A DNA stretch of 64,000 bases from Amoebophrya sp. A120 (taxonomy: Eukaryota > Protista > Dinoflagellata). Both the position numbers and the translations under genes were made by a program. Below, piece by piece: positions 2,135 through 61,710 of this stretch. Under the pieces are notes generated by a model. That model was not told where the DNA came from. It saw only the letters and a list, made by a program, of their open reading frames with translations, and made no database searches. Positions within the stretch are counted from its first letter, which is position 1. Each line of letters starts with the position of its first letter. The stretch lies in the NCBI GenBank assembly GCA_905178155.1, contig CAJINV010000008.1:2467207-2531206 (forward strand), in the 5' to 3' direction.

Positions 2135-2834
2135 TCACATGACAGAAAAACCCTGCCGCGGAGGCCTCAAGTCAAAGAGATGCGCGACACTGTCGCGATC
2201 AGTGTACCTCTTCATCTCAACGTCAACTACGAACTCATTTGAAAGCTCTTGTTCTTCTTCTTGCCGAAAGGAATACAATACACTGCGCGTCCTGCAGTGC
2301 TGCTCTCTTTGCATCTCGGCGGGTCGGTGCTGGGAGTCCTTTTTTCGAGGCTGCAGCACGAAGCTTCCGCAACTTTGGTGCGACGAAAAAGTACCTAGTG
2401 CCATTTCGCAAAGAAGCATACTGGTCTTTCGCGCTTCTGCTTCATCAACCAAAGATCGGCGAAGAGATGATCAGCAGCAGCAGCTGTCGACCACTGGGCA
2501 CAAAATTTATATCCGCACCCGTCTACTCACTTATGCAAACACGACAAGAGTGGCAGAATACGAGACGCGCGAAGATCTCGAAAAGTAGACCAATGCGGTA
2601 CCTCTTCATCCTCCGCGTTGTTTTCTTTCCCACTTCCTTGTGCTTAAACTGCACGCGCCAGCAGTCGTACTCCGCTGGATCCGTGGGTGGTACTGGGACT
2701 TTACGCGCGCCGAGCACTCTCTTCTTCATCACGTAGACATTGTCTTGGTCTTCGTAGCTTATCAACCCCCTTCGTGCGTGTTCATCGTCAAGCTTATCCT
2801 TCGAGCTCGCCTTCTCGAGCAAGAACAGCTTCAT
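2135..2834 (-). CDS. Probable exons of a hypothetical protein with weak PARP-catalytic-like motifs
   Basis: ORFs 2523-2834 and 2135-2452. The latter contains LLCEMALG and, about 50 aa later, NEFVV, resembling PARP LLCEVALG and NEY/FxV. No His-Gly motif was seen. These may be the 3' part of the upstream gene. Confidence 0.3.
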
Positions 2835-3712
2835 GTACTTCCAGCCGGGAACGTAAGTGATTCCCTGATTATGTAGGGTAATTATGTATACTTAGTTCCC
2901 GGTTTTATTTTTTTTCTACGAACTTGGCAAACGCAAAATCCAAAAAGGCAAGAAGTGTGGGGACAATCAAAGAACGAAGTAGCTGATCAAACCTGGTGAA
3001 GTACTCCTGACTCAAACTCCTTCAAGTTCTTCAACACATCTACGTACACCAAAGCGCCCAAAATAAGTACCCGCATATCCGGACGGATGTGTGTGCCGCG
3101 AGTGCGAAGGTTCGGGATAGCATGAGGTAGGGGTCGCGGCAGCGGTATGCTGGGCGACCACGCGACATCGCTCTTCGAGGATGGAGACGAGTCATTGCCA
3201 CTGTGACTGTCATTGTCCGCACTGCTGGAGGTCGGAGAATAATCTGGTGATTAGAAAAATTCGTGGACATTGTCCAATCTATTCATGTATGTGTTGTTCT
3301 CATACATATCAACACAAAGAAATACGGCAAAGACATGCTTTGCGATTCTCTGGCTTGAACAGCGCCTTATTTACCGGATGAGCACTCCCTGCTCCGCGCG
3401 TACCGTTTTCCCAAATCCTTCTCGAACGCTCTCCGTAGAGCGCCAAGCGTTGGCGGGAAGGCCACTCCAGATCCGCAACCGATCGTATGGAAGTTGGAAA
3501 ATATCCTACCGCGCTTGCCATCGCGTCGCAACTTGTCAAGTACCAATAGATACCATACTCTGTCTTCTCACTGGGCATTACAACAGCAGCTCAAACAGGA
3601 ATGAGATAGCAGCGATCCTTCCAAATGCATCTTCTATTTTTCCACATGATGCGCGCTGACATAGTTCTCTTGTGGAACACTTGTCTACGCTGGCACAAGC
3701 GAGCGATCACTT

Positions 3713-6700
3713 TCAGTCTGGATATGGTAAGAAGGCTGGTTCGAGCTTGAAAGGCACTGGAAACCAATTGCTACTTGTTGTCGAACAGTGATTTGAGTTC
3801 GAGTCGGCTACATAGACACCGTTCTGCAGTTCTCGACCCCAGTGCTGCTCGTACTCCAATCTCGCCAAAAACTCCTGGTAGACTGACAGTTTATTGGCGT
3901 ATTGCTTGTTCTGTTCACCTCCTTCAGCGCCGCTCTGCAGCTGCATTCTCCTGTACTCGGCGTCCAGAAAGTTCTCAGCAGCCTCCACCTCTTCCACATC
4001 CAAAAAATTGTAGCAGTTCATACCCTGGGGCATCTTTCCGGAATTTCCGAAGCAGGCACGGTGAAGATCGCCATGCACTGCAGTTTTCGCATGCGTGCTC
4101 CTAAAGAATGCACAACAGAGGCAGCAGGAAGCGCCTGTGGTTGCTGCCGGCTTTGCGCGATGAAAACGGTTCTGGTACGAGTCTTCGAAAAATCTGCGAC
4201 AACAGGCACCTGGTGATATGCATTTGCGTTCAAATTTGCGAGTGATGCGCAAGCACAAGGTCTTCTCGTAACCGTCATCAAATCACAAGCACCAACAAAC
4301 CTACGAAAAGTCATCCACCTTGTTTCTTCAGAAACGCGGACAAGAGTCCCTTCGGCACGCCAATCTCTTGATCCGCAGCCGCCGGTGGACCCTCCTCTTT
4401 TCGTTGATGTCCCGGACCGATGACCGTCGGTTTAGGGTGATCAAAAACGGGAAACGTGGAAATTTCTAGAGCAGTGGGAAACGAAACGTCCACGACACAC
4501 GCGCAGCTGTCCGCTATCACGCTGTCCTCGCCCTTTATTGACCACGTCCACGTCATTGTGACAAGATGAGCGGGCGACACGGACCCGGCCCGCGCATTGC
4601 AGCGGCCTTCTAGATTATCAAGGACGAGACAAACCAACTTATCCAAAAACGCTAATAGTCTACTGATACATAGATTGATATATACAGCTTTTAGGAGCCT
4701 GCATGGCTTTCTTTCGGTCGCCTGCGCCGAAAAAGGAAGTGTTGTCCTCGGCGGGGCCGTTCAACTCTCGGCGCCGGCGCTGACCTTTTTTGTGCTCGTC
4801 TGAATCATGCTTGTTCTAGTGATTTTGCAACTTCTTGGACGAGAGGCCCTGTCTCTTTGGATACAGCGTTTTCGTGCCGAGTGGCCCACAAATTCCCCAC
4901 TGCACCAGGTCCACTCCGGCTACTTCATCGCGTCCGGTTTGCGTTGCGCCGAGCGTAAAAACCGGCTTGCCAGTGGCAAGATCCGATTTGTACATCGGGT
5001 AGATCAGGCCCCCGAGCTGCGTCACGGTATGCGTCAGGAAATACCATCCGCTCACCTCCGGATAGTTTTCGCTTTTCAGCAAGACCTTGGCGGGTGGGTG
5101 GGTCGTGTCTTGGATGCAGGATTCGAGCCGCTGATCGGCTTGTTGTTCTTGGGCCTTATCTGCTACCGTGGAAAAGTTGCGGGCTCTTGGCTCAGCCATG
5201 TTGCTCAGCTGACGGCAAGGTATGATCTTTCTCCCTTCTAGTACCTTCGCTGGAAGAAAAGCTAAAACGCCATGATCGCTGCTGGTATCCTCGTGCTCGG
5301 TTTCCAGTGGACGTTCACGCTTAGCTGCGGTCGCGCAGGAGGGAAGCGACGAATCTGATTGCTTTTTTTTGCTTTTCTTGTCACCAACCAAATGCCCGCC
5401 TCCGTTGTGTTGTGTTTCGGATGTCGGTTTGTTTGCAGACCGATTGACGGGAACGGGTGCAACCTCCCGCTTCACTTGTTGCAGTGGATGACCCAAAAAG
5501 CCGATACGTTCTGACTGCGTTTTAGTGCAAGGCGAGTGCTGCTCGTTCTTGATCCGCAGTGTTCGCGTTCCTGCCTCCTCGCGAGAGTTTTGAAAGATGA
5601 GATCTTGCTTGACCCGAAAACGGGGTAATTCCGGCGACGTTGGTGAAGTGGGCTCTTTCTTAATGCGCACAGGATCGCGCTTGCTCGTGCATTCAGGCTC
5701 GCAGTTGACTCGGCTGCGGCGACGATCAGCGGCCCCGGGTGAGGTGGGCTCGCACTTGATTCGGGTCGTGGGAGCGCAGTTCTCTCGCTCTGTGGCCGAA
5801 CTCGTGGTGATCAGCTCTGGGTCCCGCTTGATGGATCTTTCACTCGTCACGTTTTCAGGAGGAGGCACTTCTGCCTTGAATTGAACATCGGGAGAACCAG
5901 AAGACTCAGCTTTCAACAAACCGGATTCGCCTACGATGGGTGACACGGACGACGTTCCCTCTTGCTTGATGCTGGTTTTTCCGCTTTTGTCAAAATCAGG
6001 AACAAAAGACGCTGCTGAATGATGCTGGCTGGACCCGGCCTGCCTGGACAGGGACGCCGATGCGTCCTCACATGCGTCGTCACCAGGATTTTGCTTCTGC
6101 TCTCTCTTGATCCTGGAACGGCCGTCGACTAGTTGTGGCGATTCCGGCTTTTGTTGTTCCTTTACCTGTGAAACACCTGCTCCCGCTGCTGGTTCCGGTT
6201 CGGCAGCGCAGACAACTTGTGCGTTGTTGTGATGCTTGCTTCTCGTGCGTGTAGTCGTGATTTCCGAATGCGAATCCAGATGCTGTTCGAGCATCGCCAA
6301 ACGAGCTGCGCGTTGCATTTCCAACCGTTCTGCTCCTTTTTCGCCCAGCACACGCATGGCGTAGCCGCTCTCGAGCAGAGTCCTTGCACTAGAGCTTGTC
6401 CACTGATTCCCATTCGCGTTATCCGCAGCAGCTTTACTGTTTCTGGCGCTGCCCTGCTCTGCATCTCGAATTCGTCGTAGCAACCACACCAAGACGGCCC
6501 GCTCCTTGAAATAGGTATATAGGCTCTCGGAAATTCATGTGAGAGTCCATTTCTGAAAATTTAAAATTCGCAAACTTCGAAACCCTCTGCGAATCTTATA
6601 ACACGCGCCCAAAACCCGGCCCCGGCGAACCCCATTCAGCTTCCAAAGTCAACAAGGCCCCGAAAAGGGGGCTTCGAGAACTCTGAAAGATACGCGCCGT

Positions 6701-9700
6701 TTTTCTTCCAGAACTCTGGAGCTTCTCTTTTGTGGACTTCGAACAAGCCGGCCCTCGATCCGGAGCCGCTTGATCCCCGAACGCCGAGGTTGGCTCCATT
6801 GCCTAGTCCATGAGGTGCCCACCACGGCTTTGAGGTTCCGAAGCCAACAAATTCGACACACATGAATTTCTCAGGCTCTGAAAGAAAAACGGCGTCTTTC
6901 TTTCAGAGCCTGAGAAATTCATGTGTGTAAATGTTGAGCCAATCCCCTTCCATCAAAAGGGCGGCTGGTCGCCGGCCGTCTGGGCTGGCTTGATTGCCAG
7001 CTCCGGATCACGGCGGCCAAAGGTTCAATCTTTTCAAGTAATCAAATCTGACACACATGAATTTCTCAGGCTCTAAAAGAAAAACGGCGTTTTTCTTCTA
7101 GAGCATGAGAAATTCATGTGTGTAAATGTTGAGCCAATCCCCTTCCATCAAAAGGGCGGCTGGTCGCCGGCCGTCTGGGCTGGCTTGATTGCCAGCTCCG
7201 GATCACGGCGGCCAAAGGTTCAACTTTTTCAACAAATCGAATTTGACACACATGAATTTCTCAGGCTTTAAAAGAAAAACGGCGTTTTTCTTCTACAGCC
7301 TGAGAAATTCATGTGTGTAAATGTTGAACCAATCCGCTTTCGCCAACAAGGCGGTTGGTCGCCGACCGTCGGGGCTGGCTTGATTGCCAGCTCCGGATCA
7401 CGGCGGCCAAAGGTTGAACTTTTTGAAGAAATCGAATTTGACACACATGAATTTCTCAGGCTCTAAAAGAAAAACGCCGCTTTTCTTTTAGAGCCTGAGA
7501 AATTCAAGTGTGTAAATGCCTTTCGCCGGCCCCCGGCTGGTGAAAATCCCCATTGGTAACTGAAACATTTTTCAGCTACCAATGGGGATTTTCACCACTC
7601 GGTGAGTGGCGAAAGCGCTTTCGCCACTCACCGAGTGGCGAAAATCCCCATTGGTAACTGAAAAGCTTTTCAGTTACCAATGAGGATTTTCACCTCTAGG
7701 TGAGAGGCGACAGCGCTTTCGCCTCTCACCTAGAGGTGAAAATGCCCATTGTAAACTGAAAATCTATTCGCCACTGACGAAGGCGACTCCTCCTGGTGGA
7801 AATTAATTCAAGTGTGAAAATTTGTTGGGGCTGTTATTGGTCTCGAAAAACGAGTCGCTTTCAGCACTCTTTTTTTTGCTACCCCCGATGGGTAACAATT
7901 CAAGTGTGAAAATTTAAAAGAGTCACTGGAACGACTCACTGCAATGACTCTTTCAATAGAGTCTCAACTATTTCTCTTCATAATTAAATTTACGCACTTG
8001 AATTTACTGTCTTTTAAATTTACGCACTTGAATTTGTTGCCAATGGCAATAAATTCAAGTGCGTAAATTTAAAAGACTCCTTCGAAGGAGTCCTTGCAAG
8101 GAGTCCCTGCCTGGACTCATTGCAAGGTGTAGCCGGAAGAGTCGAACGCAAATCCAAAACGAAAACGATTCATCCCCAACAATTTGCACTAGCGCCAGCA
8201 GATGTCCCAACTACCTCCTCCCCCAACCCCCGCTACCTCCCCTGGGGCCCGAGCCTTCTCCTTCCCAACCCGGACCACCTCCTCTACAAGTTCAGCCGCC
8301 TACTCCCGGAGCCAGGTCTTCTCCTGTGGGCCCCGGCCCCCTTCACGCGGAACCCAGACCACTTCTTCCACAGCCCAAGCGCCCTCATCCGGAGCCTGGA
8401 CCCCCTCCTTCCAAACCTCCGCCACATTCTTCGGAACCCAGGCGCCCCTCGTCCCAACCCGGAAACGGCCCCGGCCCTCCCGCTGCTTTCTTCTAAATGG
8501 CCAGACCCGAGGCGCTTCAGCTTTGAAGGCAAAGCCCATCGCCCCCTTCTGAGCTGAGGCCGCTCAACCCTTGCAGACCTACCTGCCCCAGAGGCCGAAG
8601 CGGGAGGAGCCTGCCTATGCTGGCATCCACGTGGGGCCGTGTCATTTGTCTCGCCTCGAGCCACCTCGCAGTCGGGGGCGGGTTTTACAAAAATGGCCGG
8701 AGTTGAGGCGCTTCACTTCACGAAGGGCAACCAGCTTGCCGAACCACGGCGAAGGCGCTCAGCTTTGTTGGCTTTGCTTGTCCACGGCCCGAAACCTCTT
8801 GCGCCCTGGCCTATGCGAAGCCGGGCGCGGACCTAATGCCCTTCCTTTTCCGAGCTGGCCCTAGCGTGGCGCCACATCGACGACGACTTAAAACACCCCA
8901 CAAGAGAATGCCTGGAGGGCGCCGGAAGGAGGGCTCGGGCAGCCACCTTCCGGCAAAGCCTTGCAGCTACACACCGCGAGGGGACCACAGAGCGCACCCC
9001 CTGAAAACCGGAGCCGGGCCCCTCACTATTCAGAACATGCCCTAAAGTGGTTCGCAACGCACTCCACTCAGCTGGTTTCTTAGCCACAATCTTCATAGTG
9101 CCAGTGCCGATCGTGAATGCTTGCCGTCTGTAGAGGTGTCGCTCTGCCACTCAGAGGGGCGAACTACAGACGCTCCCGGCGGCCAGAACCCCTATGCCCT
9201 GCCCCCAAATCGCGGCCCCCGATGGCCGACAAAACCGCCGAAAACCGAAAACACGCAGAGCCACCAAACTGAGCCGAAACACCTAAGACCGAGAAACACA
9301 AGCCGGCGACCAGTGCAACTGCTCCAGTTTTTTCTTCGGGCAAAGGCCCCAACGTGGGCGGCAGGCCTGTGCCCGGGCGACGACCACAACAGAGCAGGAT
9401 GCCAGGAGTGAGGTCATAACCCAGAGGGCCGAAGCGCTTAACGTGCGAAATAAAAAGCGCGGCGCCGGCGCTGCCGTCGCTACTTCTTGCAGAACTGTAG
9501 CGGTTCGACTCTGGCAGCAGCTCCGTGGCTGGGCAACTTGCACAAGCAAAGGAGGCGCGCAATGTTTTGCCATTGGCGCTATTCGAAAACTGCGAAATTT
9601 AAATTTTCGAACATGGTACTAGACATGAATTTCTCTGAGCCCATAAGGTAAAAATCTCGTTAAACAAGATATCCTCGCGCGATAGTTCGCTCTCCCCTGA

Positions 9701-9832
9701 ATTTGTACGGGAGGCCGCAGCAAGTAGGTCTCGTTCTCGATCGAAGTAGTTGCGTATCTCGGAAAAACTTCTGCACAACCATGGCGATTCTGGCTGGTTG
9801 TGTGCTGTTATTTCATGAAAAAGAAGCAACAT
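3713..9832 (-). CDS. Multi-exon hypothetical protein interrupted by a 3.1-kb and a 224-bp TAT..ATA insert; both gene ends uncertain
   Basis: ORFs 9599-9832, 4816-6492, 4311-4646 and 3713-4258 join in frame: ...NEIFT|YFKERAVLVWLL... across 6513-9645, ...TKTL|VCLVLDN... across 4635-4863, and ...KKQG|ACCRR... across a GT-AG intron at about 4210-4317. Confidence 0.65.
4640..4863. mobile_element. Degenerate 224-bp TAT..ATA inverted-repeat intron
   Basis: Both ends read TATCCAAA inward. The flanks CAACT/CAGCG match at 3 of 5. Removal joins two ORFs in frame. Confidence 0.6.
6855..7513. repeat. 195-bp tandem repeat, each unit carrying a 73-bp hairpin
   Basis: GACACACATGAATTTCTCAGG starts at 6855, 7050, 7245 and 7440. 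Hairpins lie at 6856-6928, 7051-7123, 7246-7318 and 7441-7513. A degenerate further unit lies at about 6660-6855. Confidence 0.95.
7519..7765. repeat. Chain of overlapping palindromes (49-bp unit alternating with its reverse complement)
   Basis: Symmetry centres fall at 7567/8, 7616/7 (AAAGC|GCTTT), 7665/6 (AAAAG|CTTTT) and 7714/5, exactly 49 bp apart. Confidence 0.92.
8200..8490. repeat. Degenerate C-rich ~21-nt minisatellite inside the 3.1-kb element
   Basis: Units such as CCCGGACCACCTCCTCTACAA, CCCAGACCACTTCTTCCACAG and CCTGGACCCCCTCCTTCCAAA recur and translate as PGPPPxx heptads. Confidence 0.55.
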
Positions 9833-10370
9833 TTGTTGTTGTTTTCAAAAAAATTGCGCATCGGTATCGTAGGTGGGAATGTTTTTCATGCTCGTAGATG
9901 GGCTCCAAGAAATTCACACATCATTATTTACGGTTCGAGTGTTCGGTTTATTCTCGTACAACGCCATGATCAACGATCAAAAAAAAATCCTCTCAAAAAC
10001 AAAAAGCAAAACACACGAAAGTGATAATTACCGGTACCGGATGGATTGCAGACGTTCGCAAATGTCTGTGTCGCACTGTGACTGCCTCTGTACCATTTCA
10101 ACGATTTCAGCAATCCCTTATGGGACCTGTGCGGCTTGTGAAGTTTCGCGACAAATTTAGGAGGCAAAAGGTGGGTTTCTAGATCAATGTCTTGACTCAC
10201 TTATTCCTGTGCAGTTGTTTTCTTTCCGTCGGCTTGTTCTTTTTACGCCTCGAAGCCATGCACGCTGAATTCAACGATCTACACTTACAAAAAAAGGTCT
10301 CGAGGCCATATAAGGCAGTGCAAATGGAAATGCTATCGATCCACGTCCAACCTTGAATGGGCGCATAAAA

Positions 10371-11198
10371 CTACACATAGTTCCTGCCATTTTCATTCCG
10401 ATTATCTAATGGCAGCAACTGTCGCGAGGAAAGAAACTTCTTGACGCGGCATACTACTTCGATGAGCTCGATGCAGCGAACGTCATCCGGAATGTCATTG
10501 CTTGTCGGTGCTGGCACATTCGCCGGCAGCACGAGATCTTCCGCCGAGACAGCCGCGCGTGACATCGTTTTTGCGGTGCGTTGGCCGCAAGCAGCAGATG
10601 ACTTCAACCCGTCCTCGATCGTCCACAGCGGTGGCTTTTCGCCGCTTGGTGTTGGTGCTTGTGCTGAGAAGGCCGAAGAAAAAAACGTCAATGGTTCTGC
10701 CGCGTTTTCACGGGTGTGGCAATGGGCAGGGACTTGCAGGGGGCGCCTACTCGTCGACGAAGAGGAAGATGAAGACGACGCCGATGATGATGCGGAAGCC
10801 CTGCAATTCTGCAGCTGTAGCTGGTACTTTTCTGCCTTCGCGGCTAGTTCTCGCCGCTCGTGATTGTGTTGGGCATGGAGATGGTTCCGCAGTACTTTGG
10901 CCTTTTCCGCAAATTCCGGCACAGCGAGCGGCGCTGCGTGTCGCGAATCGATGGCGACGAGGCCTCCACATGTTCCACCCCCCCGCTTTTCCTGGTACTC
11001 CGTTCTGGCAGGATTCATCCTAGCCCAGTTTTTTTTTCCGCCCTTGCCCACGGCCCACTCGTAGCCATACCAAGGGTGTCTGGTATTCTTTAGAACACCG
11101 ACGTCGACCCACTTGTTCGGGGGAAAAGGGCGCACGACGTTCTTGTTTGAGGGCGTAGGTGGCCCAGAGGGGCCAGCGTTCCTCATGATCTCCGCCAT
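10371..11198 (-). CDS. Hypothetical protein (275-aa ORF, possibly one exon of a larger gene)
   Basis: ATG-initiated long ORF with coding-like composition, a Trp-rich N-terminal segment (KWVDVG...PWYGYEWAVG...NWARM) and a poly-Ser tract. No family recognised. Confidence 0.5.
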   Translation of the reverse strand: MAEIMRNAGPSGPPTPSNKNVVRPFPPNKWVDVGVLKNTRHPWYGYEWAVGKGGKKNWARMNPARTEYQEKRGGGTCGGLVAIDSRHAAPLAVPEFAEKAKVLRNHLHAQHNHERRELAAKAEKYQLQLQNCRASASSSASSSSSSSSTSRRPLQVPAHCHTRENAAEPLTFFSSAFSAQAPTPSGEKPPLWTIEDGLKSSAACGQRTAKTMSRAAVSAEDLVLPANVPAPTSNDIPDDVRCIELIEVVCRVKKFLSSRQLLPLDNRNENGRNYV

Positions 11199-12139
11199 CG
11201 CTTGTTCTTGCCCGAACAGAGTATTCTTTTTCGCCCCACCAAATAGTAGAAATCACGCACAGAGGAAACTCAAAAATGCTAAGATACAGACTGTAGAAGC
11301 CGCTATCTTGTATTCTTGCATCCAATTTCGAGATCGAAAAAAGAACAGAAGCATGGCGAAAGCAGAAAAGCAAGCGGAGAGTGCCAGGTCAGTGGGTCAT
11401 TCGGTATTTCTATTTTTCTGCTCGGTATGAAGCCGAACGTCTTCACCGGCATCAACCTACATGTAAGTACTTACACCCCATACTCGTTTGCCGAAGAGAT
11501 ACAGGTCGATCATGATCTGCGGCTCCAGCCATGTTTTTAGCTTCGCCTGCAGATACATGAACCTGTGGGCGCAAGGCGAGGGCGCGCGCTAGCAATCTTG
11601 GAATAAATACAGAGAATCAGAATGGTCTGACTTCAATTTTCAAGACATCTATGAAATTGAAACCAGCACACTTTGGAGAGTAATTGCAATGGCCGCAGAC
11701 ACAATTAACTTGCAGACGTAGTTCTCTCTCGCTCAACTAACTATGTCGCAGAAGTCAAGGAAGCAGTTTTTTTGATTCTTTCGGTTCTGCCAACATTTTG
11801 ACACGTCCATTTTGAATTCAAAGAATGATGTTGCTGTTGCAGATAATGAAACACGAACATCTGCTGGTGTCGACAGCGACGGTTCATGGTAGACCCACGT
11901 CCAACTTTGAGAGAGATTCAGAGTAGGGACAGCACTCCGCATCAAATGTTTCTTTTTCTTGTTGCTCGGGAGCATTTATTACTACTATTCGATACAAAAC
12001 TACGGAGTTTCATCTTCTGTTGACGAAGATCAACGTGACAAACTGCGCGCACGATCAGAATCGCGCCCGTTCCGAAATCGTTCGATCCCACAGCTCAGGT
12101 CCTGAAGCCTCTTGACCGGAATCCTTGGACCTAAATGCT

Positions 12140-29200: not shown

Positions 29201-32200
29201 GTTCTGCCCGTGCTACTACCTGTGGTTCCCTGTTGGCCTTGCTTTGTCTTCCGAGTCTTCTCTTTGTCTGCGGCATTAAAAGTTGTCCCAGCTCCACCCC
29301 CTGAGGACTTTGACGAGGACGAAGCGAACCTTGCTTTCATCCACTTGTTTGCCTGGAACTGCGGGTCGATCATCAGTGGCCATTTCCGCTTGCCCTGCTC
29401 CGTCACGAGTATTCCGTTGCAGATCGAGACGCTGTCCGCTGGCAGTTGGCAATTCTGCCAGTGCCGAAGAATTTTCGCGTCGCCGAGAATTTCTTCTAAT
29501 GCGAAGTTGAACAAAGGAGAATTCAACAATTTTTCTCCCTCGCTAGTATTATTCTCATGCTCTTTAGTTCCAAAGGTATCCCTATCCACCAACACAAACT
29601 GCACCCATTTCTGGACCAGCTCCTCGCGGAAGGATTTCGTGAACGGGCCGTAGTAGCTCAAACAGGAGGAAGACAGAAACACGTTCGTTTCCAAGTACTT
29701 TTCCTCCACGTCCACAATCTTTTGCAGTGACTCGCGCCACCGTTTATCTTCCGACATGAGCGACTTCGTGAGAATGTCCGCTCGTTCTAACCGTTTCTCC
29801 GTCAACAACGACTCGTTGATCAACTTCTCCTTTTCCCTTTCCATCTTGCTCAACTTCTCCTGCAGGGCGTTGACCTCGTCCAGCACCTGCTTCAATTTGC
29901 CCTGCTTGTCCTGCAGGATGCTGTTCGCATTCTCCAGTTCGACGTTCATAATTTTCACCTTTTCCTTTTTCGGCTCGACCTCCTTCGCAACCACGGAATA
30001 GGTGTGGATCGCGTGCGTCCAGAGACACAACGATTTGCACGCCTTCGACTGGTTTCCCACCACATCGGGCTGGTATTCCGGTTTTTTCACGTACTGCTCG
30101 AGCTTCTTCAAGACGTTCGGCTGAATGTTATCCTTGTCGAAGTGCTTCAGCTGCTGGATGAAAGCGTTGTTGTCCGCGAGAAGCGTTTTCCGTGCGTGGT
30201 CCCAGTCGGTTTTCTCGTTCAACAACGTAGAGACCACCTCCATCGTCAGGAGGACCAGAGAAGGGGGTTTGACAAAGGACCGGATTTCCGTGATGTCCTT
30301 CTTGTCCAGCGCGTCAAGGGCTTTGATCGCGTTATTCAGAGCCGGAAGAGCGGTGTTCAGATCCTGCTCCGCCTCCTTCTGCAACGCCGCGACTTTAGAT
30401 TGTTGCTCCTCGACGATTGTGGCGTCTTTCGAAACTTTTTCCTGGATTTTGTCCGCGTTCTGCTTCTCTTTCGAGACAAACGGAATCAGCTGCTCCGTTT
30501 CTTCGATCTTTTTCTTGATTCCCGGCCGGATTTTCTCGTCCAACTGCTGCTGCAGGTTGATCACAAGCTTGTTCGCTTCCTTGATTTTTTCCACCCCGAG
30601 CGTGAGTCGCTGTGAGGACTTCTGCAGCTTTTTCGTCTTTTTCGCCAGCAGGTCTTTGAAAGTCTGCAACAGATCCAGGAAGCTGCTTGGCGTGATGTAC
30701 ACATGTCGCTGCTGCTGCTGCAAAAACGTCACTGCCGTCCTCTCGACGGCCTTGTGGACAAAAACGCAGGCGTCGCAGAATTTATGCGCTTTGATATTCT
30801 CGGACCTTGATGTTTTCGTCTGTTTGTGCGGCGAGCTAGTACTGGCGCCAGGAGAGCGAGCGTTCTGCTGCTGAATATTGGTCGTGGTGGGCAAGTTGAC
30901 TGCTGCACTGCTGGTGTGCAGCGACGGCAGGTTCGCCGCACAGTACTGCTCCGCCACCAGAAACAGAGCCTCCTCGGGCCAAGGGAAAAACCAGTCTACC
31001 GTCGTGCAGTTGATCAAACTCGGAAACAGCCGAATTCGGGTCCGCAGCTTTTCCCCGACCGGGCTCATCGCAAGGACGATGTGGAGGTTTGCTTGGACTT
31101 TCTGCTTGAAAAAGTCCCAGACGTCTTCCTTCGAAACCACAGGTAGGGGCGAAGCCGCTGCTGAGCCGTTGCCACCATAACCGGCGCTCGTCGAATCCTG
31201 TTGAGCGGAAGTGGCGGCCCGGTCGTTGGTCGTAGCGCTGTGTACAACTTGCACGATCGGCTTCAGTGTTTGCGTGATCTCCTCGAGTTGGTCTGTTTGG
31301 TACAGATTCGGCACTTCGCCGGAGTTCAGCAGTGAATTAACGTCTTCGAGAAACGACTCAGACAGGATCTGGCTGTCCGTCAGCAAGAAGCAAGTCTTTG
31401 TGCCGAGAAACTGAAAATTATCGGCTTGGTTCGCTGATTTCGACGTGCCAGCATCTGAACCAACAGCGGAGGTCGAATTCCCTGCTTGCTTGTTTCCACC
31501 CTGCTGGGAGATGGAATTCGGCTGCTTCGTCTTGCTGGATCCGGAAGCTGCAGTGGCTGCTCCTGCTGAACCCTTACCACCTGCAGTTGCTCCTGCGGCT
31601 ATACCAGCACCAACGTCGCCGTGCAGCACGGCGTTCACGCCACTGACCATCCGCAGTAACTCCTGCTCTGCCTCGCGGAACTGCACCAAACCGAAGTTCT
31701 TCGTCATTTCCAACTCAAACTTGACCATCGGATTTACCGGCAACTGTTCGTAAAAGAAGCAACAGAGCTTCGTCAACGAGCTTCGGCCACTGCCGCCGAC
31801 GCCGACGAGAAGCAAAGAGCCGCGCGGCTGGGAAAGAACCCGGGAAATGCGGACGATGTGCGAAATGGCGTCGCCGAAAAACACCAATTGCATCGGCGTG
31901 TTGCTTATCAAATGTAAAAGTGTCTGGGTCTGGAAGAATGCAACTTGTCATGCTAAATCTGAATCAGGCAAAAAACTATGTTGCATGATTGCCAAAAGTT
32001 GTGCATTTTTGACCTAATCGGGAGGCAGTTTCTCATGCAGGATAGGCATTGGAAAGGTTTCGCAGAATCTGTCATGCTATGTCCTACATACCAGACCTCA
32101 TGGGTTATGGAAAACGTGCATGACAAATCTGGCAATCTTCCAGACCCAGACATTTTTGCAATCCATATTGCTGTCGTTGTACTCGTAGTTGTACTGCTGG

Positions 32201-52894: not shown

Positions 52895-55800
52895 CTACCA
52901 CCGTTCCCGGTCGGCGGCGATTTCCTGTAATGCGTTCACCAGCAACTGGTGCCCTTTGTCGCTCCAAACCGCGTCCATAACGTGCACAAACGTGGTCTTT
53001 CCGTCGGTCCTATCAAATGTAAAAGTGTCTGGGTCTGGAAGATTGCCAGGTTTGTCATGCACATTTTGCATGACTCCTGATGTCTGTGATGCATGCCCTA
53101 GCATCACAGATTTTGTGAGGGTTTCCTGATGCCTATACCGCATGACAAATGCTCTTTCCGTGTAGCAAAACTTGGACTCTCGTTGCTGCTCATGCAATAC
53201 AAATTTTTTTAGAATCCAAAATCAGCATGACAAGGTGGATTCTTCCAGACCCAGACATTTTTACATTTGATAGGTCCCGTCCTGCTCCACCCACTTCGTC
53301 ACGTCGTAGTTCTCCACCCACTTATTGATGTAGAACATCTCCTATCAACTGTAAAAATGTCTGGGTCTGGAAGAATGCCAGACTTGTCATGCTGGTTTTG
53401 CATGACCGATGCGGCCTGGCATGTAGGACATAGCATGACAGATTCTGTGAGAGTGCTATCATGCCTATCCTGCATGAGAAACCGCCTCTCGATTAGGTCA
53501 AAAGTGGACAGCTTTGGGCAATCATGCAACACAGATTTTTACATAATTCAGATTTAGCATGACAAGTTGCTTTCTTCCAGACCCAGACATTTTTACACTT
53601 GATATCTCCTGCCCGGTGTATCCTGTGTCAGCAAATAACCCAGATACAACCCATAGAAGTACGGCGACATAGTTGAGTTCCGACTGTGAAGTGTGAACGG
53701 GACTTCAACTTTTGCAACAAGAATGAAGCAACTTTAGAAGCTACGCATCTTCACTGGCGTGAGTGAGACCGCAGGACTATTACCTTTGAACCAAGCGACT
53801 TTGCTTGGCTCGCGCGACTACATTACATACCTATCAAACACGCACTGTAGAGTAGTCCCATTTTGTTGATTCCAACGGCACAAAATCAAACACCAATACG
53901 AAAATGCCTCTCAGTATGCAAGGTCGCATCAACAGATTCAGACGCATCGCGAAAATGCAAAATTTTTATGCCGAGTCTCGTCTGGGTTATGGGTGCGTTT
54001 TTTCCGCAAAATACGGTATCGTGTTTCTTCTTGATCCAGTAGTTGAACCAGCCGTGGAAGCCCTCCTTCTTATCCCGCTTGCGCACAACTGTGTCCCACC
54101 CTCTTTCTCATGCATATCTTCCCAGCGACGACAACCTTTGGCAAGGGTTCTTGCATCATCGGGATTTGATGTGCTGTAGTCGCCGATGCCGGAACAGTAG
54201 GTATGAAGGTCGCGCCCGGAGGGCGATATTGGTAACCAAATGCGTGCGCGAAATTCTAACCAGCGCGAAAGCCTAACCAGCCGCGCGGCGAAAGCGCGGC
54301 CCAGCGGGCCGCGCTTTGGCGCTATTTATTTTTGATTACAGCCCCACTCCTTCTTCTGCAAGCCCCCTGCATGAGAAACTGGCCCCCTGGCCAGGAAGGT
54401 ATCTGGGTCATCGGGGGCTTCCGGATTCGCATTCAAAGCTTATGGGCCGCGGGGAAGTGGTGGAGCCCGCGGCGGCCCGCAGGCTCCTGCGATAAGCATT
54501 GAAGGCGAAATCCGGTCTGCTATTTCGCAGCGGGGCATCCTCTCTAGCCCCCTGCGTGACAAACTGGCCCCCTGGCCAGGAAGGTATGCGGAAAGCCGAA
54601 AACCCGCGAACCCTTCCGGGCAACCAAAATCGNNNNNNNNNNNNNNNNNNNNNNNNNNNNNNNNNNNNNNNNNNNNNNNNNNNNNNNNNNNNNNNNNNNN
54701 NNNNNNNNNNNNNNNNNNNNNNNNNNNNNNNNNNNNNNNNNNNNNNNNNNNNNNNNNNNNNNNNNNNNNNNNNNNNNNNNNNNNNNNNNNNNNNNNNNNN
54801 NNNNNNNNNNNNNNNNNNNNNNNNNNNNNNNNNNNNNNNNNNNNNNNNNNNNNNNNNNNNNNNNNNNNNNNNNNNNNNNNNNNNNNNNNNNNNNNNNNNN
54901 NNNNNNNNNNNNNNNNNNNNNNNNNNNNNNNNNNNNNNNNNNNNNNNNNNNNNNNNNNNNNNNNNNNNNNNNNNNNNNNNNNNNNNNNNNNNNNNNNNNN
55001 NNNNNNNNNNNNNNNNNNNNNNNNNNNNNNNNNNNNNNNNNNNNNNNNNNNNNNNNNNNNNNNNNNNNNNNNNNNNNNNNNNNNNNNNNNNNNNNNNNNN
55101 NNNNNNNNNNNNNNNNNNNNNNNNNNNNNNNNNNNNNNNNNNNNNNNNNNNNNNNNNNNNNNNNNNNNNNNNNNNNNNNNNNNNNNNNNNNNNNNNNNNN
55201 NNNNNNNNNNNNNNNNNNNNNNNNNNNNNNNNNNNNNNNNNNNNNNNNNNNNNNNNNNNNNNNNNNNNNNNNNNNNNNNNNNNNNNNNNNNNNNNNNNNN
55301 NNNNNNNNNNNNNNNNNNNNNNNNNNNNNNNNNNNNNNNNNNNNNNNNNNNNNNNNNNNNNNNNNNNNNNNNNNNNNNNNNNNNNNNNNNNNNNNNNNNN
55401 NNNNNNNNNNNNNNNNNNNNNNNNNNNNNNNNNNNNNNNNNNNNNNNNNNNNNNNNNNNNNNNNNNNNNNNNNNNNNNNNNNNNNNNNNNNNNNNNNNNN
55501 NNNNNNNNNNNNNNNNNNNNNNNNNNNGACCTTCACGCCTCCCGGCGGTTGCCCTATATGGTAACGGCAACTGCCTTCGCGCTGCGTTTGCTAAGCAATA
55601 TCGCAAGCGCGCAGAGCGCGCGCGCCGGCTTCGTGGGCCGGCGCGCGCTCTGCGCGCGCGCGCGCACGCACGCATTTGGTTACCAGATTACTACAGTCTA
55701 CTGCGCGTAAAGGTTTATTGCAATGCAAATGCCGTTTACGTTACCTTCTTTTCTGCTCCTATGAATGCCTTGCGAATGAGAGCAAGCGGCAGCGGGACGA

Positions 55801-58800
55801 GTTGTGCACTCTCATAGTTCAGAATAGACATTTTGAAGCTCTGCTTGTGCATGAGCTCGCACTGGGATAGGCAGCCGGCGACGGTGATCGCGCGAAGCAC
55901 CGAGTACATGCATGTGAAGACCACGTGCTGTAGTTGAATGTTAAGTTCCTACTACATGCTTATAAACTTTATGAACATCTTCCATATTAGTACAGCACAA
56001 GTACTAAGTACACAAAAAATTGCAAAGCGTCAACATCGATCTGTGGCTCGACCAAGACAAGCGTAGCACATAGTTTAATCTACACCGAGCTACATGGTGC
56101 AGGTACACAAAATCAAACATGCCCTGCACAGGCACGTACCTGCACTCCGTCCCTCACCAGCTCCTCAACGAGCGACTCCGGATCGTCCTGAATCGCTCGG
56201 GTCCGCATCTTATGCATTGCAAATCCAAATGTGTATGTGTCTGCTCGTAGTTTTGGAAACACATGATTAGTTGCACTGACACTGAGTACTTCTTTTAATG
56301 GTGCGCAACACAAAGCCTGTGAGTTGTTCTTTAACGCACATTGCTCAAGCGCGCGGGGGTTTCTTTGTCATGCAAAGCCGCGATTCCTCACGCACAGAGA
56401 TGTCGTGCAAGCTCAAGCATGATGATACTTACAGGCGATAGCAAAGTTACCGTGCGTCGCTGTGTACTAGTACTGCTGTCTACTACGACTACCTATCAGT
56501 TCTTATTCACAACAACACGATACGATAGCATAACAACTTTCCTGAGCGTGAGCCAGATCATCGATATAATTACTTAGTTTGCATTTGATATATGTTCCGG
56601 GCTCCCGGGACGTTGCCGCCGCAAAAGTCCCGACCGCGGACATCGATTACCAACAGCCCCGGCTCGTTCCGCTCAATCATCGCGGCCAGCTCCTCGCTAT
56701 GCACTTGAAATATAGTGTTTGGGTCTGGCACAAGAGCGCAAATTGAACTTCCCTAACGAAATCTGTGACGCTAGGGCATCCATCACAGACATCATGGGTC
56801 ATGCAAACATTTTTCCAGACCATTTCCAGACCAAGACATATTTGCAATGGATACTCGTGCGTCAACTGCTCGAAGTTGTTCTTTGTCGGGCTCCCCGGGC
56901 TGGCACCTATGCATTACAAAACGAGATCGCACTACAACTGAGTAAGCATACATTGCAAATTTCAAATTTTTCCTCATGTCGACATGCATCAACTCATCAT
57001 GCTGGTTCTGCTTTGTTTGAAAATGGACTTGTCAAGCTGTATTGCATTTCATGCTCGTACGATAACGGTTTGCACAGGATACTGGCGTCCACGAGCTGAT
57101 TGTCGTGCTCGTCATCCGGGTCCTCGTCGCGCGATCGCGGTATGCATGCCAAATACGCGCGGGTCGCGTGCATAGACCTGACGCAAGATCGCGAGCGAAA
57201 ACAAAGGACAGAGCAAAGCATTAAAATTTTCAGCACGAGCCGGTACCTGTGGTGTCGCTGTGCACTACCACCGTCCTACTCATATGCAGCTCGCTCGTTC
57301 ATTTCTCCGTGCAAAAGACGTCGTAGAGCTCTTCGCTCAGATGCCTTTTTACAGGGCGACGTAAAGGTTACAGTAGGTAGGACCAGCAGCTGCTCCTGCA
57401 GCTCCTGCATCAACATGAAAAATCTTGCCATCTTCCCGACCGAGAGGACGTATTTGCAATGGATACGTAGCTGCTTCTTCAAATTCGCCGAATGACTGGT
57501 GCCCACCAGGGGAAGAAACTGCTTATCCTTTTTTTTCTTCTTCCCACTAGTCGCTGATGACGAGGAAGAGCCCTTGGCGGTTGTACCACTTACGACCACA
57601 TTCTCTAGTACTCCCTTCTCGTGGAGCTTCATGTTGAAATTCATTTCGGTGGACAGCGTGCCCATATTTAGCACTGCCGAGGGATCCTCGGGCATCATTT
57701 GCAGCTCCACCGGACTCTGTTCCTTTTTGCCACTTCTCGAGGGCCCGGATGAAACGATCCCCCCGAGCCCGAGATCAAAGGTTACTGGCGGAACCACCTC
57801 CGAGCAAAAGAGCTCGGCGTCGGGATCGGATGGGACCAGTTCGTGCCCGTCTGCGCCAAGATCAAGAATCCCTCCGTTTGTAACAAGGCCAATCTGCTCT
57901 CCCGCTCCGAGCTGCTGGTGTGTCGCTGGTGGTGGCCCAGCACCTAGAACTCCGTTAGCACTTGAACCTCCCGCTGCTGTGCTACTGTTACCAGCAATGG
58001 GCACCAGGCCACTTTGACCATTCGCGACAATCTGGCTACCCCGCCGACTGTCCTGCGGCGAAGTGTAGTTCGAATCTTCGTTTTCTTCGGGAATTGGTGA
58101 TGTGGGACGCACCTATGGTAGTGGAAAATTCGTTCCCCTCTTCTATTCTCTCTAGTGAACGGTACTTCTAGCAGCAGAAACAGCCATCTTACTTCAGGCT
58201 GCTGAAGCTTTTGCTTCACAATCAAAAATCCACTCGTCCCAGACTGCAGTGCAGTTGAGGCTTCCGGAATTTCTCCTGTCACCGGTTTTTAAACCGGGCC
58301 AAAGGTACTTCTAAAGGTTAACACGGGAAGTATGTTCATGATCATGTTGTACTTTGGCATATTGCATGACAAATGACGGGGAGTGAGTCGGGGGCTGTGG
58401 CTGTCCACTAGCATATCATCATCATATTCTTCTGAATCCTCTTAAACTTGTTCTTCTGCTTTTTTAAATTGACTTTCTTTGGCGATTTCGATGAAGAGGA
58501 CTTGCTTCCCCCGCTGGGTGAAGTAGCGCTTGCGGCACTGCCCCCTCCCGGAGGTTGGAACATCATCGGAGTGGCTGAAGAAGCACCACCTGCTCCACCC
58601 GCGGATGCAGAGGAACCTCCGCCGGCCGTCGCCGACGCCCCGCTCGGGGAACCGGGCGCACTGCTACTCGCACTGTTCGCGTTGCTGGAGCTCGACGAGC
58701 TGGGCTTCTCCTCGAGCAGGTGGGTGGATATCGTGGAAGTATCTTCCGCGGCGGGGGAAAGGGTGCGAGCGGTTACTTCAGCCCTGTCGCCAATAGAGGA

Positions 58801-61710
58801 GGACGGCGAGCTATCTTCCTCCGGGACTACGCTCGGTATGGGATTCTCAAACGTTACATTCTCAACTGTTACATGGATTTGTCATGCAAAATTGCCATTG
58901 CCCTCCACTTGATCAAGGTGCTTAGCATGACAAATTTTCGAAAGGCTAAACAGCATGATACTCTGTGGAAAATCTGTGATGCGAAAGTTGCAACCTTGCC
59001 ACTTTCACTGTTGCTGTTCTTGCGTTACAAATCCATGTAACAGTTGAGAATGTAACATTTGAGAACGCCATACTCGGATTGCTGAAATTGTACTGCACCG
59101 TGTACTTGTACCTTTCATTTGTTCAAATCATCTTTTACACCGACAACTATGGTGTCTATTAATTTAATTTCTGTAGCACGACATTAGGTGTGGTGACCTG
59201 CTCGAACCAATAGTCTTGTTGTAGTACGAGATCGGTGTACAAATATTTTGCACGTTCACATCTCGCGATGTCGCGTATTATACCGCGCACTGCTGGTTGA
59301 TACGAAGCCTACAACAAAATCACACAGTCACCAGTACGTTTTTTCAACATGCAATCTTCGATTATCCATAGAGTTTTAGCGGCGCTCCTGCACACGACCT
59401 GGGTGCGACTCTAGCGCTAGGAGATCAGACATCAAACTAACACTAACAATTGCGTTCGCTCCTGTGACAAGCTCTTGAATCAAAGTTGTACTTTGGACTC
59501 TTCATTTTTCCCTTCTTCAAACTGCCCCGCTGCGACCTGCTCTTTCCGCCGGACGTCGCGGACCCGCCGTTGTTCCACACCTCCTCTTCCTCCTCCTCGC
59601 TGTCGCTGTTGTCGCGGCTCTGCGAAATGCTCGCGACTTGCGACTGGTGCAGCGAACGGCCCCACAGTGGCGTGTTTATCATGCTCTGCACTTCGCTCGT
59701 CATCGGGCTCATACAAGTATGAATGTTGCCCTTGCAGTATACAAAAAAAAATGAAATGTGCTCCGGGTAAGTAGTGTAATTCTCGACAACTACTCCAAGG
59801 TGTCACCTCGTTTTCATCTACCAACGTGCGAAAATTTTTGTGCTAAACACTAGAGACAACAAAAATCGGGATCATTTTTTCGGGTCGCCAAGCGAAGCGG
59901 GCCGTAGCTTCAGCGTGGCAGCAACATCGCCAAAATTGCGAATTAATAGACATCGAAACTTTAAAAACTGTCCCATACTATGCATGGAGCAAAGCACGAA
60001 GAGAGCAGCCCGCTGCGAATGCAAATGCTGTGTTCATGTAAAGCGGAAACAGGCCGCAGATTATAGTAGACCAATCAGAATGGAGGCACATGATGAGTTG
60101 GTTTCCTGCCGATATGCAATTGCACTTCCTGAAGGGAATCCCGGCGTTGATCACGCGCCCCCGCATCATCGCAGTGTCGTAGCTCGGTCTGCGCAGCACC
60201 GGCCTTCCAGTGGGGTCCAGGAAGTTCTTATCTGACCCCCCGGGCGTGGACGACACCGGGATCATCGGCTGCAGCGGGAAATTGTTCAGTCCCGGCAGCT
60301 ATAAATCGCAAATATGTCTGATGAGTGACAAACGGAGCACGTTTCTACGCAACCGCGCATGACAAGTTTATAGTGAGGCTCTGTGGTGCCTTACGCGCAT
60401 CGTGACAGCGAAGCAGTGCTATTCCGCAACATACATGACGGAGCTCAGGTTGTGCGGGCGTTCAGGATTACAAGTCTTGCAAGAAAATTTCTTCTCAAAC
60501 CCAGGTCGATATTTGCACTGGATAGCAGCGCCGCATTCTCCTGAATATGTGTGAACAGCTCCATCAAACTCATTTGCCCCAGCGCGCTGTTTTCCTTTGC
60601 GATGTCGTAAATCGAAACATTCGGACAGGAGGAGAGCAATTGGTTGATGTCTAGCCCCTCCTGCTGGGCGGCTTTGGAGGAATGCTGCCTGTTCATCCCG
60701 CCCGGACTGTCGGCTGATGCAGCTGCGATCATCTCCTCGCCGACGCCCGTGTTTTCCACGTTGATCGTCACAGTGCCCACACTTCCGGCCAGCTTACTCG
60801 GACTCAGAACCTTGGCGGCGATCGCCCCCTTTGCAGCTCGGCCTTGTTCCAGCGCACCACCAAGGGCGGGGTCCGTAGAGTCACTGACTCCCGTGTTGTC
60901 CCCGTCGGTGGACGAAGTCGAGACCTCTAGTCCGACCCCCGCAACCGCTCCCTTACTGCCCTTCTTGCCGTCGCCAGGACCACCTGATGAACCAGTCTGC
61001 TGGTGCGCAAGTAAAGCTTGTACTTCCCCTTGTTCATCGCCCTCCTCCTCATTCGTGGCAGAAATTTGCGACGCGTTGTCTTCGTCTTCAGAGCCTGCGC
61101 CACCTCCTCCCTTGATGTTCACAAGACCCGGCAACGCACTCACCGCGGGGATCATCAAGCTCAGCCGGTGTTCGTTGTGACGGATGAGTGGCACCGGGGC
61201 CGCGGCCGCAGAAGTCGCCGTGCCACTGCTCGTCGGCCCGGGCGAATTCGGGGCGTTCAAGTCGCCGGTTTCTAGAACCAAATTGTTGTTCGCCGCTGCA
61301 AAATTGATCTGGGCGCGGTCCTCATCGTCCTGCTCTTCCTCCCCCTATGCATCTTTTGCAAATATCGATCTGGGTCTGAACTAAAATGTTCGTTTGTCCC
61401 TTGCCCTCTTGCAAATAAAAAGTGGATCATAAATTCGGTCTTACCTCCATTACAACCTGGTCGTGCCAGCATCGTCCAGCACGACAAGAAAACTCGCGAA
61501 TTTCCTCCAACTAGTAAAGTTCTGGTTCTCCTTCATCACCTTGAGAAATCCAGAGGACCCAGACCACAACATATGTGCAATCCATACCTCCTCCTCCTCG
61601 TCGCTATCGGTTTCGTCGCTGTCCTCCTCCTCGGTGTCGTCCTGGGTAAAAACGTCCCTGCTCCCGCATTTGTGATGCAAATTTGCATGCCCAGAAGAGT
61701 ATGCTCTCAA
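52895..61710 (-). CDS. Highly interrupted gene: long acidic/low-complexity N-terminus plus C-terminal Cdc25/Acr2-like rhodanese domain; 5' end and some junctions uncertain
   Basis: Reassembled exons read FEQLTHEELAAMIERNEPGLLVIDVRGRDFCGGNVPGARNI-RTRAIQDDPESLVEELVRDGVQ-HVVFTCMYSVLRA (CX5R) ... EGFHGWFNYW ... WVENYDVTKWV...ERW*. Linking the 52895-54085 exons across the gap is inferred from motif order. Confidence 0.75.
53011..53272. mobile_element. 262-bp TIR introner, copy 2
   Basis: TSD GGTCC (53006-53010, 53273-53277) and TIR matching at 31 of 32. Removal gives EQDGT|DGKTTF in frame. Confidence 0.95.
53343..53604. mobile_element. 262-bp TIR introner, copy 3
   Basis: TSD TCTCC (53338-53342, 53605-53609) and the same TIR. 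Removal gives YTGQE|MFYINK in frame. Confidence 0.95.
54230..55685. mobile_element. GC-rich inverted-repeat-bounded element spanning an assembly gap
   Basis: A 19-bp inverted repeat TGGTAACCAAATGCGTGCG lies at 54230-54248 and 55667-55685. An internal direct repeat AAACTGGCCCCCTGGCCAGGAAGGTAT occurs at about 54376 and 54561. The flanks GATAT/GATTA match only partly. Confidence 0.6.
54633..55527. other. Assembly gap (895 N)
   Basis: Run of N bases. Confidence 1.
56211..56590. mobile_element. Degenerate 380-bp TAT..ATA intron
   Basis: Ends TATGCATTGCAAA/TATCAAATGCAAA match at 10 of 13, and the flanks match at 3 of 5. Removal joins PGARNI to RTRAIQ in frame. Confidence 0.75.
56698..56853. mobile_element. 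156-bp internally deleted relative of the 262-bp family
   Basis: It shares the GGGTCTGG/CCAGACC TIR cores and the interior block TGATGTCTGTGATG-ATGCCCTAGC-TCACAGATTT with copy 2, in reverse orientation. Flanks are CTCGC/CTCGT. The sense strand reads GTAT...ATAG. Confidence 0.85.
56908..57081. mobile_element. 174-bp TAT..ATA intron with canonical GT-AG reading
   Basis: The sense strand reads GTATCC...GCATAG, and removal gives LVDAS|ASPGSPTK in frame. The inverted repeat is weak. Confidence 0.6.
57141..57465. mobile_element. 325-bp TIR introner
   Basis: TIR matches at 14 of 17 (TATGCATGCCAAATACG/TATCCATTGCAAATACG), with flanks CGCGG/CGTAG. Removal gives KKQLR|SRDEDPDD in frame. Confidence 0.8.
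58837..59072. mobile_element. 236-bp TIR introner of a second family
   Basis: About 46-bp near-perfect TIR (TATGG..TTCTCAAA.GTTACATTCTCAACTGTTACATGGATTTGT) and perfect TSD CTCGG. Removal gives FSNPS|VVPEED. Confidence 0.93.
60300..60524. mobile_element. 225-bp TIR introner
   Basis: Perfect TSD GCAGC, with ends TATAAATCGCAAATAT/TATCCAGTGCAAATAT. Removal gives ENAAL|PGLNNFP in frame. Confidence 0.85.
61346..61586. mobile_element. 241-bp degenerate introner related to the 262-bp family
   Basis: It retains TCTGGGTC/GACCCAGA cores, with flanks CCCCC/CCTCC. The sense strand reads GTATGG...GCATAG, and both possible removals are in frame. Confidence 0.8.

Follow-up and report, generated by a model that had tools for sequence, protein, structure and literature searches.

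A 64,000-nt stretch of DNA from Amoebophrya sp. A120 (assembly GCA_905178155.1, contig CAJINV010000008.1, positions 2,467,207 to 2,531,206; hereafter the window) carries a 3,128-nt insert within an exon of a protein-coding gene. The insert is most likely a recent, non-coding copy of an element with terminal inverted repeats (TIRs), removed from the RNA, together with one copy of its target-site duplication (TSD), as a non-canonical intron. It is an unusually long example of an intron class already published for A120 (Farhat et al. 2021), and kilobase-sized families have already been catalogued (Gozashti et al. 2025); what is new here is its size, the seven apparently unused copies of the TIR core in its interior and a lead to transposases of the IS3EU/GingerRoot type. 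More than 60% of the introns of Amoebophrya are removed without GT-AG and without a detectable U1 small nuclear RNA. An insert of 3.1 kb suggests that length sets no limit, the internal TIR-core copies let one ask whether true termini or mere hairpins define the cut, and the TA...TA ends suggest the transposase family to look for.

The insert begins with TAT, ends with ATA and is flanked by a perfect 5-bp duplication, AGGTA, as a preliminary description made from the sequence alone had proposed. That description put the imperfect TIRs at about 63 bp; they measure 64 nt with 73% complementarity, and their first 20 nt match at 16 of 20 positions. The features of the element, none of which is assigned to a strand, are the following:

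6518–9645: the element, 3,128 nt, a non-autonomous, multi-copy TIR element with TAT...ATA ends (from its ends, duplication, the window scan and its copies)
6513–6517: target-site duplication AGGTA, left copy
9646–9650: target-site duplication AGGTA, right copy
6518–6581: left TIR arm (64 nt, 73%), on the sense strand the intron's 3′ end
9582–9645: right TIR arm, on the sense strand the intron's 5′ end
from 6655: degenerate 195-nt unit, before the main array
6848–7518: tandem 195-nt units, 3.4 copies with 92% matches, every unit forming a hairpin out of the TIR core motif
7538–7769: tandem 98-nt palindromic units, 2.4 copies
7787–8127: small hairpins, and direct repeats, in which the core motif occurs in a variant form
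8130–9580: GC-rich interior of about 1.45 kb, with no coding remnant detected by profile, codon-usage and homolog searches

The 11-nt TIR core occurs nine times in the whole window, always within the element, two copies being terminal and seven lying in the 195-nt array. The earlier picture of an element packed with palindromes holds for the hairpin arrays at about 6655–8130 and fails for the GC-rich 8130–9580, which has none of the tandem arrays. Both ends carry AAA at positions 14–16. The TAT-N7-AAA spacing that marks the majority inverted-repeat (IR) motif families of A120 is absent from them, and the element is filed under the broad definition of introner elements (IEs) only, outside those motif families. 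No Rfam family reached its gathering score anywhere in the window.

The arrangement of ends and duplication is not due to chance, since a scan of the whole window, which required TAT...ATA ends matching at 13 or more of 20 positions and a perfect 5-bp duplication, found six elements, the giant one included, against none in each of ten shuffles.

Evidence for removal in RNA comes from four of the 12 sequencing runs listed (X1, X3, X9 and X10), which were aligned over 3500–11500. X3 consists of assembled contigs without strand, RNA by guess; it is treated as spliced RNA because it skips two minus-strand GT-AG introns (4206 to 4316 and 9804 to 10038) that are not skipped in X1, a DNA-like run. 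X1 is possibly the source of the assembly and is therefore not independent. An X3 contig of depth 14.8 joins 6512 to 9646 with an exact skip of 3,133 nt, 53 letters on its shorter side and five sliding letters; a second, of depth 48.3, makes a 3,133-nt skip with 30 letters on the shorter side and three sliding letters. The RNA junction that the preliminary description had asked for, about 9646 to about 6512, was thus found in RNA-like contigs. X3 has a depth of 0 in four bins over 6971–8038, the middle of the element, and none of the X3 joints listed leads to an internal TIR-core copy. Joined contigs are absent from X1 and from X9.

On the sense strand the joint can be read in six registers, TA..CT, TT..CC, CT..AC, CC..TA, AC..AT and TA..TA, none of which is GT-AG, GC-AG or AT-AC, in agreement with the earlier observation that the ends offer no GT-AG. 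As judged from the sequence, the exact cut is not placeable inside the 5-nt duplication.

The joint restores the reading frame of the host gene. An unspliced message meets a stop 14 codons into the element, and deletion of the element with one duplicate fuses the flanks in frame on the minus strand (EIFT/YFKERAV), as had been predicted; the public protein GSA120T00006138001 (Amoebophrya sp. A120, 872 aa, partial; P0001) is already continuous over the site with the same residues and matches the downstream exon at 100%. A four-exon model derived from the X3 joints is open for 937 codons and agrees with P0001. The upstream open reading frame (ORF) first given as 9599–9832 does join in frame; it is only one exon (9651–9804) of this larger gene, all of whose parts lie on the minus strand:

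4816–6517, minus: exon 4, its boundary able to slide within the duplication (protein match)
9651–9804, minus: exon 3 (X3 joints, frame, P0001)
9805–10037, minus: canonical GT-AG intron, 233 nt (X3 joint, frame)
10038–10197, minus: exon 2 (X3 joints, frame, P0001)
10198–10454, minus: intron of 257 nt, GT..TG (X3 joint, frame)
10455–11198, minus: exon 1, coding part, with the first Met at about 11198 (frame, P0001)

A protein search with the downstream exon gave five matches among 7,992 candidates: P0001, a further three proteins from A120 and an unnamed one. The host gene belongs to an A120 family of at least four paralogs, which share a conserved central block and repeats rich in IKxE, and P0001 has no Pfam family at the cut-off. 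To judge from its intron-like N-terminus, P0004 seems to be a genomic ORF extending from the upstream intron across the insertion point, and would thus represent an empty homologous site. The intron at 10198–10454 reads GT..TG on the sense strand with a frame that fits P0001, which points to a non-canonical acceptor; it was missed by the TAT...ATA scan.

Regarding mobility, the element contigs of X1 have depths of 218–256 and the flank contigs 28–34, which corresponds to about 7–9 copies as far as contig depth, which reflects copy number and expression poorly, can tell. Over 697 and 931 nt the X1 element contigs show no deviating letter; they have loose ends at 6518, 9645 and 9646, and near-identical copies of the element carry other flanks. 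X9, an estuary metagenome from another study, contains five near-identical element pieces and none of the host gene. In addition, a metagenome contig (L001) carries a copy with exactly the same TAT as its start and with a different flank; its identity is 99.7% across the 348 nt to the contig end, and it is located some 600 nt upstream from a long ORF. Near-identical copies, other flanks and the position in L001 mean that the family is young and able to insert outside coding sequence too, and the earlier view of a mobile, non-coding TIR element of a system with TAT ends and 5-bp TSDs is supported by ends, duplication and copies. Pattern searches with the TIR gave no match in viral contigs, none in genome contigs and one in metagenome contigs; a search with the internal unit gave none in viral contigs. 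The ORF next to the L001 copy (2181–7424) is intronless, spans 1,747 codons, has no Pfam match and appears by eye to have a signal peptide and a C-terminal membrane segment. X3 also holds contigs of the element interior (8286–9142 and 6636–6819) at depths of 3.5–6.2 with 2–8 differences, one of them with 44 unaligned letters; there seems thus to be transcription of diverged relatives, through which a partner element might be found.

The element itself shows no sign of an enzyme. Its six frames contain no Pfam family at the cut-off (best E 0.0047, DUF5466). Codon-usage scores over 8000–9650 reveal no sustained coding frame, with a weak control (exon 4 scores only 0.038), and the longest ORF, which is proline-rich (8018–8554), has no longer homolog among 881 candidates, which is weak evidence. 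These searches agree with the earlier statement that no transposase is recognisable and do not bear out the expectation that the element would be the best lead to the mobilising enzyme; the published A120 family 38, with its integrase-like homology, is a better one. TIRs and TSD together suggest cut-and-paste movement by a transposase encoded elsewhere, probably an integrase-like DDE enzyme.

In the minimum free energy structure predicted for the sense RNA (3,238 nt), the TIRs pair to the last base and the two duplicates come to lie side by side. The predicted TIR duplex has −60.7 kcal/mol (z −11.9 against 200 shuffles), and the best internal alternative −38.9 kcal/mol. Pairing of the TIRs in the RNA would bring the two duplicates together, and the altered splicing route of the ~250-nt introners, with a spliceosome in which U1 was not detected according to Farhat et al., would then cut within the duplication at any length. 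The internal TIR-core copies may be transposase-binding or by-products of amplification; they would fold on themselves and so offer no decoy ends. It is plausible that end structure, not dinucleotides, defines excision, as Farhat et al. (2021) already proposed.

Several observations weigh against removal as an intron of this gene. P0002, P0003 and P0005 from A120 are identical to the host protein in the amino acids around the junction, so that the joined contigs could stem from paralogs, and the deeper one (48.3) most likely does, as it accords with a synonymous difference in the third codon position at 6514. The 14.8 contig fits the host copy in allele and depth, its depth being close to those of X3 contigs identical to the host copy upstream (10823–11313, depth 12.3) and downstream (15.4, 20 and 23.3); it may stop short of the diagnostic positions 9712–9713, and contig depth has the limit given above. 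The support comes from one RNA-like run of strandless assembled contigs. The raw RNA run X10 gave no aligned reads and thus no test, and X1 contains no empty-site joint even for the paralogs, which makes its blank a weak one. The plus (antisense) strand offers GT..AG at 6515–9647, which the preliminary description did not mention. Finally, the element lacks a recognisable transposase, its ends lack the TAT-N7-AAA spacing of most A120 introners, and the fold over 3 kb is a prediction only. The proposal of removal as a non-canonical intron therefore stands in so far as a joined RNA form exists, with locus and strand left ambiguous by the paralogs and the strandless contigs.

Three other explanations were considered. 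Of four redundant paralogs, the one with the insertion may be knocked out or largely silent; all joined RNA would then come from empty-site paralogs, whose transcripts the public model would have borrowed. Such a silenced copy would suit the identity in protein of the four A120 paralogs over the junction, the dominance of paralog alleles in X3 (depth about 92 at 9712 against about 15 for the host copy), the similar depth of one paralog class (19.5 at 9706) and the youth of the element. However, zero-difference host-copy contigs of 219–491 nt lie on both sides at matching depth, with none from the element middle; one joint contig carries host-copy letters through the five duplicated bases and over 53 nt or more on either side; no empty-site joint is listed for X1, and the reading frame is otherwise intact. 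We consider this explanation rather unlikely. Ordinary GT-AG splicing of an antisense transcript, cut at AG/GT within the duplication, would make use of the plus-strand register 6515–9647 and would go unnoticed in contigs without strand. It is very improbable, because within the flanks examined the joined plus strand is open for 33 codons only and the minus strand for 631, the other two canonical X3 joints are minus-sense, and all seven long ORFs (>420 codons) at 18.6–45.7 kb lie on the minus strand; a GT..AG register on the plus strand occurs in two of nine elements, as chance allows with six registers. Precise excision from the DNA in some cells or stages, or a polymorphism in the culture, with transcripts from the empty allele, is hardly to be expected either. 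A young TIR element would be capable of it, X1 and X3 are different samples, and contigs drop rare variants; yet X1 has no joined contig, and after excision by cut-and-paste both duplicates or a footprint usually stay behind.

If the insert is indeed removed as a non-canonical intron, a wider rule can be proposed tentatively, with the odds rather against it: A120 would splice any insert with a TAT...ATA stem and a 5-nt duplication, at any length and with any dinucleotides, skipping internal cores, and the whole system would be mobilised in trans by an undescribed transposase of the IS3EU/GingerRoot type that makes 5-bp duplications. Were this true, even multi-kilobase transposons would be splice-neutral, and the terminal-stem rule could naturally be examined on the giant element, which has seven internal decoy arms and, for controls, the empty-site paralogs.

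The window contains smaller elements of the same kind. A looser scan returned six with a perfect duplication and two with one mismatch, 156–264 nt long; at the loosest setting shuffles also yield 2–10 matches, so that the weakest small elements are less sure. Compared with these eight, the giant is 12–20-fold longer, a correction of the earlier figure of about 8–20 times. The TSD is 5 bp in the giant and in all six small elements with perfect duplications, five of which have TAT-N7-AAA on at least one end. The claim that the giant obeys the same end rules as the small introners is accordingly right for TAT and the 5-bp duplication and wrong for the TAT-N7-AAA spacing, since its AAA begins at position 14. 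No further large element rose above shuffle level when the scan was relaxed to TA...TA and lengths of up to 12 kb. A second giant element, considered on account of a 57-nt inverted pair at 53065/56751, was rejected, as its arms sit within two small elements.

Among the small elements, that at 31906–32167 (262 nt, TAT...ATA, TTGCT duplication) lies inside a dynein heavy chain gene, whose frame is restored on its removal; those at 53011–53272 and 53343–53604 have nearly the same ends and equal length. The 236-nt element at 58837–59072, with TATGG on both sides and no TAT-N7-AAA, has ends (alignment 34/40 points) nearer to those of the giant than are the ends of the other small elements. The stretch 53640–56600 is unexplained; it includes a gap of 895 N and, near 54366/54553, a direct repeat, the six frames of 53710–54632 have no Pfam match, and it could be a further collapsed repeat element.

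The closest known system is that of the introner elements and non-canonical introns defined in Amoebophrya A25 and A120 by Farhat et al. (2021; PMC7789003), who did not detect U1, proposed hairpin-guided joining, described the TAT-N7-AAA spacing for A120 families, and analysed only introns of 40–1000 bp, annotated A120 introns reaching up to 35 kb. In the parts of that source used here, the likeness extends to genome, non-GT-AG ends, a terminal IR starting from TAT, a 3–5 nt boundary repeat, repetition and lack of a transposase. The giant element has the properties by which those authors recognise IEs, namely non-canonical sense ends, an end-joining IR, a boundary repeat (AGGTA), repetition and a joined form, here in RNA-like data. 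It differs from the described IEs in its 3.1 kb against a mean of 240 nt, beyond their 40–1000 bp window, in an IR of 64 nt against 8–20 nt, in AAA at position 14 instead of after TAT-N7, and in its internal TIR-core hairpin arrays. Such elements are limited to part of the genus, according to the relevant part of PMC12005148.

Gozashti et al. (2025; PMC12130899) list 58 A120 introner families, of the TIR DNA type and mostly non-autonomous. Kilobase lengths are represented by family 86 (1,619 bp, 84-bp TIR, satellites), families 103, 135 and 25 (1.1–1.5 kb) and, by our own reading of alignment columns, family 200 (~2.5 kb). None of the 58 A120 rows gives a length near 3,130; the table holds no sequences, so the giant is set apart by description only and may already be represented in the sequence data or figures of this paper or of Farhat et al., and the host gene identifier does not occur in the 14 supplement files. 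Family 38 is described with "5-bp TSD, TA/TA Termini", about 808 bp, a TIR of ~50 and integrase-like homology, which the giant lacks. In the same tables, the donors of A120 fam2 (GT 2611, CT 1800) mirror its acceptors (AG 2616, AC 1994); aligners may have picked whichever register in the duplication looks canonical on either strand, in which case published dinucleotides need not be true cuts.

Farther afield, nonconventional introns of euglenids (PMC11282704, PMC12501133) share TIR-paired ends, TSD-like repeats and lengths of up to several thousand nt, as far as these sources were drawn on, and differ in belonging to an unrelated lineage with its own CAG/CTG signature. The preliminary assignment to the foldback type does not hold. 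Tandem repeats and strong fold-back potential are common to the giant and to Foldback elements, but the latter, as presented in the part of PMC3169594 consulted, have composite TIRs at both ends (Tm1 with a 9-bp TSD), whereas the giant has a simple 64-nt TIR, a 5-bp TSD and repeats that are internal, near one end (6655–8130). Ginger2/TDD was rejected because the termini are TAT..ATA and not TG..CA (TGTNR), even though the 5-bp TSD does match TDD-4/5. A literature search combining Amoebophrya with IS3EU found no publication, and the portion of PMC12130899 covered mentions neither IS3EU nor GingerRoot. These DDE transposons have TA..TA termini, long TIRs and a TSD usually of 6 bp (PMC10045372 and PMC6839031, in the parts used), and fungal IS3EU ends read TAYGG..CCRTA (PMC12730594, likewise). 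The giant shares TA..TA termini with TIRs; its right end is an exact fit to the fungal pattern and its left end has one mismatch. As TA...TA ends are typical of IS3EU/GingerRoot, they provide a lead; it is a lead and not membership, because the TSD is 5 bp instead of the usual 6 and membership rests on a transposase, which was not found in the element. The lead is in line with A120 family 38, in which TA/TA ends and a 5-bp TSD go together with integrase-like homology.

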